Shown here one piece after another: positions 14,267 through 14,721 of a stretch of 64,000 bases of DNA. The translations under genes were made by a program, and so were the position numbers. Each line of letters opens with the position of its first letter. Positions within the stretch are counted from its first letter, which is position 1. The notes beneath the pieces were generated by a model. It was not told the origin of the DNA. It searched no databases and worked only from the letters and a program-made list of their open reading frames with translations. Where the stretch lies: assembly GCF_041248615.1 (NCBI RefSeq), contig NZ_CP158426.1, one strand, 5' to 3'. This DNA is from Escherichia coli. Lineage in GTDB: Bacteria; Pseudomonadota; Gammaproteobacteria; Enterobacterales; Enterobacteriaceae.

Positions 14267-14297
14267 CTCGCTGATTTAAATATCCAGGGAAGGAAAT

Positions 14298-14561
14298 ATG
14301 ATCGATCTGGAAAACCAGGAACGGGAGATTATCAATTTAATGTTCAGCCAGGGTATATCCTGGCTAACCGCCGTGCGTATCAGGCATAAACTATCACTTG
14401 CTGAAGTAAGTAAAATGTTAGGTATCTCCATTAATTCTCTAATACAGATCGAAAAGACGGAACGGCTTAGTTCAAACATCAAAAGCAAAATGGCAGGAAT
14501 TTATGGTTGTCCACCAGAGTTGCTGATATGCCCTTCCTGGATGACGGCTGAACATAAATGA
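14298..14561 (+). CDS. Small XRE/HipB-like helix-turn-helix protein in AT-rich segment
   Basis: 87 aa ORF with HTH-like LSLAEVSKMLGISINSLIQIEK; low-GC surroundings; occupies the position of yjjJ in K-12. Confidence 0.45.
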   Translation: MIDLENQEREIINLMFSQGISWLTAVRIRHKLSLAEVSKMLGISINSLIQIEKTERLSSNIKSKMAGIYGCPPELLICPSWMTAEHK

Positions 14562-14661
14562 ATAGATTCGTGAATAGATACTTGAATGGATTTTATTTTC
14601 TATCCATATGAAAAATAATAGTAAATCTATAAATCAGTTGCTATTGATGAATAGATACTAA

Positions 14662-14692
14662 AAAGCCGGAGCAGTCTCCCGCTCCGGCTTCA
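14662..14692 (-). terminator. Rho-independent terminator downstream of deoD
   Basis: GCCGGAGC/GCTCCGGC 8 bp stem followed by T-run on minus strand right after deoD stop. Confidence 0.6.
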
Positions 14693-14721
14693 CAAGGCAA
14701 TCGCCTTTCAGCGAAACACAA

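Follow-up and report, generated by a model that had tools for sequence, protein, structure and literature searches.

A kinase-less allele of the lplA–deoD islet in Escherichia coli: an orphan helix-turn-helix gene beside the retained upstream module of hipH

The segment between lplA and deoD in the window (the whole 64,000-nucleotide stretch of E. coli DNA analysed here) is a kinase-less allele of a small variable islet, the product of an ordinary allele swap in which the toxin kinase gene hipH (yjjJ) has given way to a small gene on the other strand, referred to below as ORF87. The upstream module of hipH is kept intact in the window, without any hipH gene to control. Across E. coli, the ORF87 allele is the majority state (75%), and the hipH allele of K-12 is the minority one (25%). 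ORF87 is an antitoxin-derived orphan of the XRE family and not a HipB; the locus gives no sign of a novel type of system. We hold this anatomy of the islet, and the evolutionary reading of it given below, with high confidence. For the function, we lean slightly towards a kinase-less islet allele in which ORF87 would be a non-essential repressor, possibly acting on the repeat boxes that were left behind. The features concerned are as follows, in window coordinates:

13250–14266, plus strand: lplA, lipoate-protein ligase, the conserved left flank.
14267–14552, delimited by alignment: allele-specific low-GC segment of 286 bp, substituting for the hipH coding sequence (1332 bp).
14298–14561, plus strand: ORF87, an XRE-family helix-turn-helix (HTH) ORF of 87 residues, identical to WP_001589645.1.
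14559–14591, plus strand: three tandem boxes, TGAATAGAT, TGAATAGAT and TGAATGGAT, with a 12-bp period.
14609–14625, minus strand: conserved central block TGAAAAATAATAGTAAA, from an alignment of 14 modules; equivalent of the hipH promoter region (putative promoter).
14648–14656, plus strand: fourth box, TGAATAGAT, beyond the −10-like element and adjoining the deoD terminator.
14663–14690, minus strand: deoD terminator hairpin, with perfect arms of 10 bp, a loop of 8 nt and a T-run on the minus strand.
14722–15441, minus strand: deoD, purine nucleoside phosphorylase, the conserved right flank.

The interval measures 455 bp (14267–14721), lplA ending at 14266 and the minus-strand deoD at 14722, and has a GC content of 0.37–0.41 across 14300–14700, compared with 0.55–0.62 in the flanks. 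The initial annotation, which had described a low-GC gap of about 450 bp, was accurate in this respect, and also in placing yjjJ here in K-12: a K-12-like genome has yjjJ (443 residues) in the interval. An Rfam search gave no match within the lplA–deoD interval. Elsewhere in the window, two adjoining matches to naRNA4 (CssrE, a nucleoid-associated non-coding RNA) exceed the gathering score, at 21634–21711 and 21734–21812 (minus strand).

The distribution of the two alleles was established by megablast, with the interval as the query and 5426 complete E. coli genomes as the database, together with a reciprocal search using full-length yjjJ. Full-length matches to the interval occur in 4057 of the 5426, with 94–100% identity, and are annotated as 'helix-turn-helix domain-containing protein'; some 1350 genomes match the last 169 bp only, at approximately 81–83% identity, and carry yjjJ. 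Full-length yjjJ was found in 1346 of the 5426, in every case on the chromosome, and never together with the ORF87 allele. Either allele occupies a median of one place per genome, and nearly all copies are chromosomal. Besides about a quarter of E. coli, hipH is also present at this islet in six other genera sampled. In the K-12-like genome, yjjJ is on the other strand from ORF87 and runs in the direction of deoD, with its start codon facing deoD and its stop codon abutting that of lplA. The two alleles become homologous again precisely at the complement of the yjjJ ATG (window 14553). The 286 bp with ORF87 thus take the place of a kinase gene of 1332 bp: the replacement covers hipH from start to stop codon, and the region upstream of hipH is common to both alleles. 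To speak of a replaced toxin–antitoxin-like locus, as the initial annotation did, is thus fair, given that the hipH coding sequence was swapped out and its upstream region kept; the antitoxin-likeness also holds, the nearest relatives of ORF87 outside the locus being antitoxin HTH domains (see below). Within lplA, there is no divergence gradient that would be a sign of ancient linked haplotypes. Further upstream, ytjB is annotated as a partial pseudogene in E. coli O157:H7 F1273 (locus L093, 1–53).

An alternative put forward at the outset is that the segment is a deletion remnant, ORF87 being what is left of the N-terminal HTH of the kinase gene. The two genes do occupy the same locus, and an HTH is present in both proteins, the hipH product, a toxin kinase of the HipA family, having a winged HTH of its own at the N terminus; moreover, hhalign returns a probability of 74% for the pair. 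This profile match, however, spans only 20 generic HTH columns, and the proposed link to the yjjJ N terminus goes no further than that. ORF87 is on the plus strand and hipH on the minus strand; ORF87 and HipH are not significantly similar by BLASTP (E=0.19), and comparison of the ORF87 segment with the hipH genes of seven genera, by blastn (word size 7) and tblastx on both strands, gave no match. Furthermore, ORF87 has orthologues of approximately 40–50% identity in other genera, from which it follows that the gene is old and independent of hipH. True remnants of hipH look different, in that they keep the HipH N terminus on the minus strand. In E. coli WB61 (L110, 849–1040), the 5' end of hipH is kept as a minus-strand pseudogene that overlaps the end of lplA, and Phytobacter diazotrophicus (L035, 5030–5219) has a 53-residue ORF on the hipH strand that comprises the HipH HTH only; these are independent hipH truncations, HTH-only remnants of the toxin kinase. 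Strand and similarity together rule out an origin of ORF87 from hipH, and we give it a negligible probability. A minus-strand ORF of 27 residues that begins at the retained hipH ATG was also considered and rejected, because this ATG is not conserved outside Escherichia.

ORF87 starts 31 nt past the lplA stop codon, preceded by a purine-rich, Shine–Dalgarno-like stretch (14286–14294), and its TGA stop codon forms the first three bases of box 1. A promoter and terminator scan found no terminator-like site between lplA and ORF87; its one plus-strand match overlaps the ORF87 start and is not useful. The 87-residue HTH product that had been claimed is present, albeit with a marginal match to Pfam HTH_3 (PF01381; 24.2 bits against a gathering score of 23, E=3.5e-5); the orthologue P0081 falls below the threshold for the same family (20.6 bits), and ORF87 has no match in NCBIfam at E≤0.01. 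The AlphaFold2 model (pLDDT 88.3) predicts an all-helical, compact HTH fold of seven helices, in which residues 45–54, approximately, would form the recognition helix. The top Foldseek matches of this model in the PDB are XRE repressors (probability 1.0, TM (target) 0.69–0.76, E about 0.02), and the HipB chains in the PDB match ORF87 weakly (E 0.12–0.9), over the generic HTH portion. The initial annotation was right to see an orphan XRE-type HTH gene where K-12 has yjjJ/hipH; its HipB-like label did not hold, since the outside relatives of ORF87 partner ParE-type toxins, not HipB. ORF87 is an uncharacterized yet already annotated member of a known family, for the accessions of which a literature search found no paper that names them. 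We consider it to be a putative DNA-binding repressor.

The nearest outside relatives of ORF87 are the C-terminal HTH halves of 'transcriptional regulators' of 103–122 residues, which are 33–37% identical to it over residues 3–77. In tblastn searches, ORF87 matches ParE-linked antitoxin HTH domains with E values of 1e-5 to 3e-6 (34–37% identity); the genes lie just 3' of ParE_toxin genes in the Pasteurella phage Pmp14 and in a Leclercia plasmid, and a similar protein is found in a Xenorhabdus plasmid. The relatives' own match to RelB-like is weak. Exhaustive HMMER and profile searches place the relatives of ORF87 almost only in Escherichia/Shigella, plus a few other enterobacteria, and among the 1.84 billion proteins covered by HMMER there is one distant full-length relative only, namely, P0081. 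A further 'homologue' with 70% identity, P0036 (L004, L005), was discarded, as it looks like an assembly artefact of bisulfite-converted reads and not like a real variant. It shows systematic changes of the C-to-T type (R to W, S to F, A to V and P to L), and the protein cannot be translated from its fetched DNA.

All ORF87 orthologues that could be located, from at least five genera, immediately follow lplA. The hosts are Superficieibacter, UBA3516 together with a JGI metagenome contig, Salmonella enterica and S. enterica subsp. indica; orthologues are also present in a Klebsiella sp. and one further taxon. Each of these genes ends in the TGA of box 1, or of a relic of box 1, which argues for a single ancient ORF87 junction. 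Between genera, the proteins are 39–74% identical with unchanged length, and the dN/dS ratios are 0.15–0.4 (0.6 for one pair), at divergences where dS is >1. Judged by this pattern of substitution, ORF87 is or has been a genuine protein-coding gene, under purifying selection between genera.

As had been claimed, there are direct repeats 3' of ORF87: exact copies of TGAATAGAT are found at 14559, 14571 and 14648, with TGAATGGAT at 14583, all on the plus strand, and there are no further exact copies of the box elsewhere in the 64-kb window; the string GAATAGATAC occurs twice in the window, at 14572 and 14649. The initial annotation had treated the repeats as a feature of the segment with the small ORF. 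Rather, they form the conserved upstream module of hipH, which, read towards that gene, consists of one TGAATAGAT box, a −10-like element and then the three tandem boxes, ending at the ATG; in hipH genomes, the tandem boxes accordingly sit between the promoter and the hipH ATG. On the plus strand, an alignment of 14 loci gives the three tandem boxes, the block TGAAAnnTAnnG..AAA and then the fourth box. The −10-like element in the window is a minus-strand hexamer, TATTAT (14620 to 14615), which lies inside the central block, faces ORF87 and is at least as good as the TATACT of K-12, although the promoter scan called neither this leftward element (the −35 is weak) nor the deoD hairpin. The module of the window aligns column by column with the hipH-linked modules of seven genera. 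Identity across genera is 89–92% in the box columns, 65–81% in the central block and 40–46% in the spacers, and the conservation of the boxes is equal beside hipH and beside ORF87 (in the latter setting, 92% for the boxes and 46% for the spacers). As the boxes are conserved across genera in kinase-less lineages, at distances where synonymous sites are saturated, something presumably still uses them.

The wider history of the islet was followed in the lplA neighbourhoods of 80 enterobacterial species representatives, drawn from 454 LplA-bearing species matches. Both gene ends are visible in 73 of these loci, and in 50 of the 73 the lplA–deoD gap is only 43–105 bp. Six loci have hipH, with 95% identity in E. 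albertii and 60–69% in Citrobacter sp., Kosakonia, Pseudocitrobacter, Leclercia and Silvania; three have remnants of hipH or of the module, and three have an ORF87 orthologue (counting species representatives). Box clusters are present in 13 of the 80 loci, which are exactly those with hipH, hipH remnants or ORF87, and absent from the remaining 67. In Escherichia whittamii (L012, 5015–5096), the whole islet is deleted and 'TTGATGAAT', half of box 4, is fused to the deoD terminator; the half box left behind shows that this seemingly empty site lost the islet secondarily and is not the ancestral state. In Salmonella, where the L102 locus keeps ORF87 intact, the module has shrunk to a single box, and in another locus (L003) it is deleted beside an intact ORF87. 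The idea that boxes decay once the cargo is lost was dropped, the cargo-less modules of L028 and L053 being only slightly worse than some hipH-linked ones. Separately, around ten loci (including L039, L043, L044, L062, L069, L079 and L090) carry unrelated genes in the gap, encoding a secreted fimbrial-like protein, lipoproteins, a REP-associated tyrosine transposase, a membrane protein or a secreted protein of 406 residues; the site would thus seem to be a general insertion hotspot.

Within E. coli, ORF87 is in a variable state. In 1691 genomes, i.e. 42% of the approximately 4057 carriers, ORF87 has the nonsense allele Q50* (CAG to TAG at codon 50, in the predicted recognition helix), and it follows that the gene is dispensable in this species. 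The intact common 32-mer of the gene occurs in 2036 genomes. The window itself has an allele, K49I (14443–14445; ATA for Ile, compared with the usual AAA for Lys), that likewise alters the predicted recognition helix, and the corresponding 32-mer is found in only 25 of the 5426 complete genomes. Copies with internal stops or frameshifts are labelled as pseudogenes by PGAP, many of the protein clusters are truncated, and dN/dS within E. coli reaches 0.4–0.7. The boxes are intact in Q50* strains, their number varies by the loss of 12-bp units, and across lineages no correlation was found between the integrity of ORF87 and that of the box module.

Observations of this kind, namely, the common nonsense allele and pseudogene calls, the truncated clusters and raised dN/dS, the variable box number, the collapsed or deleted modules of Salmonella, E. 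whittamii and L003, and the uncoupling of ORF87 state from module state, are what would be seen if ORF87 had once been functional, for instance as an antitoxin or a regulator, and had since become effectively neutral, with the boxes as leftovers of hipH that have no role. We regard this as possible, but as clearly the less likely course. At dS values above 1, a gene without function would not be expected to show dN/dS of 0.15–0.4 and constant length, the difference between boxes and spacers beside ORF87 is not readily accounted for unless selection acts in lineages that lack the kinase, and the intact common allele persists in 2036 genomes.

The boxes are probably operators for the winged HTH of HipH itself, kept in the window without the kinase; we make this assignment because they travel with hipH onto plasmids. 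Directly before their ATG, plasmid homologues of hipH, with 33–35% identity to K-12 HipH and in unrelated contexts, carry (A)ATCTATTCA or CTATTCA boxes in tandem, with a period of 12 bp (L099, 1447–1468; L101, approximately 1430–1470; L153, L156, L159 and L163); the hosts are E. coli plasmids or phage-plasmids of approximately 90–100 kb (pE2-2 type) and an Enterobacter IncC plasmid. The same boxes precede hipH in four phage-plasmid contigs. In the HipH N-domain, the recognition-helix motif SQ.T.SR is invariant across the chromosomal, plasmid and phage-plasmid homologues. [quoted passage not shown]

It might instead be that the boxes are bound by a host factor or some other unrelated protein, neither HipH nor ORF87, and that they are conserved in both alleles for this reason. 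Their equal conservation beside the two genes is in keeping with such a factor, as are two published data sets: in K-12, ChIP-exo detected no DNA binding by YjjJ (PMC8464067), and Reg-Seq at the yjjJ promoter reported a MarA site and that of an unidentified repressor (PMC7567609; bioRxiv 10.1101/2020.01.18.910323). A scan of viral contigs (IMG/VR, L111–L199) for tandem boxes also bears on this point. It gave 89 matches, compared with 17 for a composition-matched permuted control motif (about a five-fold excess), of which 4 are beside hipH; the other 85 contigs, in which the tandem motif stands in mixed contexts, have no hipH and no gene for a HipH-N-like or ORF87-like protein. The motif thus occurs apart from hipH as well. 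The viral ATCTATTCA repeats have a 12-bp period and 2–7 copies, often with one more copy approximately 50 bp away, and their sites include the upstream regions of a UvsY-like gene and of cell-wall hydrolase genes. Even so, we think an unrelated binding factor distinctly unlikely, given that among the 80 enterobacterial lplA loci box clusters are confined to this islet, that the window has no other exact copies and that the boxes accompany hipH onto the plasmids of different hosts with orientation and spacing unchanged.

In the window, the hipH coding sequence is absent from the islet, ORF87 stands in its place and the control module of hipH is retained. In the reading that we slightly favour, ORF87 would be made from the ytjB–lplA transcript, i.e. 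co-transcribed with lplA, and its most plausible target would be the neighbouring box and promoter module, the only candidate visible in the sequence. If active, this module would transcribe leftward, antisense to ORF87 and lplA. The particular step in which ORF87 acts on the boxes is doubtful: the link is weakened because the integrity of the ORF and that of the module are uncorrelated and because the nonsense allele is common. Less probable again is the most elaborate version, whereby the box array would be an autoregulatory operator of HipH, on the chromosome and on plasmids alike, and ORF87 a substitute regulator that took over after displacing the kinase, such that the islet switches between 'toxin kinase' and 'orphan repressor/anti-addiction' alleles in a polymorphism kept across several enterobacterial genera; we deem this improbable.

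ORF87 could also act in trans, as an orphan antitoxin that counters a ParE/RelE-type toxin or an incoming plasmid hipH, thereby protecting cells that lack hipH of their own. Its closest outside relatives are the antitoxins of ParE_toxin genes, and the plasmid and phage-plasmid hipH genes of E. coli bear the same box motif; furthermore, HipB, likewise a small XRE protein, relieves the toxicity of YjjJ when over-expressed (PMC9948734). On the other hand, ORF87 is without the RelB-like N-terminal half, which is the usual toxin-binding part, it has no neighbouring toxin partner (no toxin-like ORF was found beside it in the interval), and it is frequently inactivated. Such a protective role is, in our estimation, very improbable, and a non-essential repressor remains our preferred, if narrowly preferred, description of ORF87.

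K-12 is atypical at this locus, in that most E. coli are without YjjJ/HipH, and work on HipH, or on the interval, in K-12 is consequently not transferable to most strains. The most useful product of the analysis is a side result, namely, the box array as a concrete and testable candidate operator for the N-terminal HTH of HipH, along with the atypical state of K-12. ORF87, a locus-bound, antitoxin-derived HTH gene that can be observed at several stages of decay, bears modestly on the recycling of toxin–antitoxin parts.

Among known systems, the closest in position is the monocistronic HipH (YjjJ) locus of K-12 (PMC8262856, PMC9948734), which occupies the same chromosomal site as the ORF87 allele. 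The upstream module of K-12 hipH, with its four TGAATAGAT boxes, −10-like block and deoD terminator, is also present in the window; what differs is that the kinase gene is absent, and a non-homologous small HTH gene lies on the other strand instead. HipB of the hipBA system is, like ORF87, a small XRE-type HTH protein (approximately 88 residues), but ORF87 shows only weak, generic HTH matches to it and no specific sequence relationship, and there is no HipA-family kinase gene in an operon with ORF87, which is, on the contrary, mutually exclusive with hipH.

With XRE/Cro–CI repressors such as CylR2, the N-domain of SinR, P22 C2 and the C-proteins of restriction–modification systems, ORF87 shares the predicted helical HTH core, from which it differs by an additional N-terminal helix (residues 4–18) and a C-terminal tail. 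The homology is closest to the toxin-first ParE/RelE antitoxins (Pmp14 gp33 and Leclercia WP_225988006.1), the C-terminal DNA-binding domain of which aligns with ORF87 through the shared motifs A.R, L.I, EK, Y.C and L. These antitoxins have, in addition, a RelB-like N-terminal half of approximately 50 residues that has no counterpart in ORF87 and, unlike them, ORF87 has a fixed position on the chromosome, after lplA.
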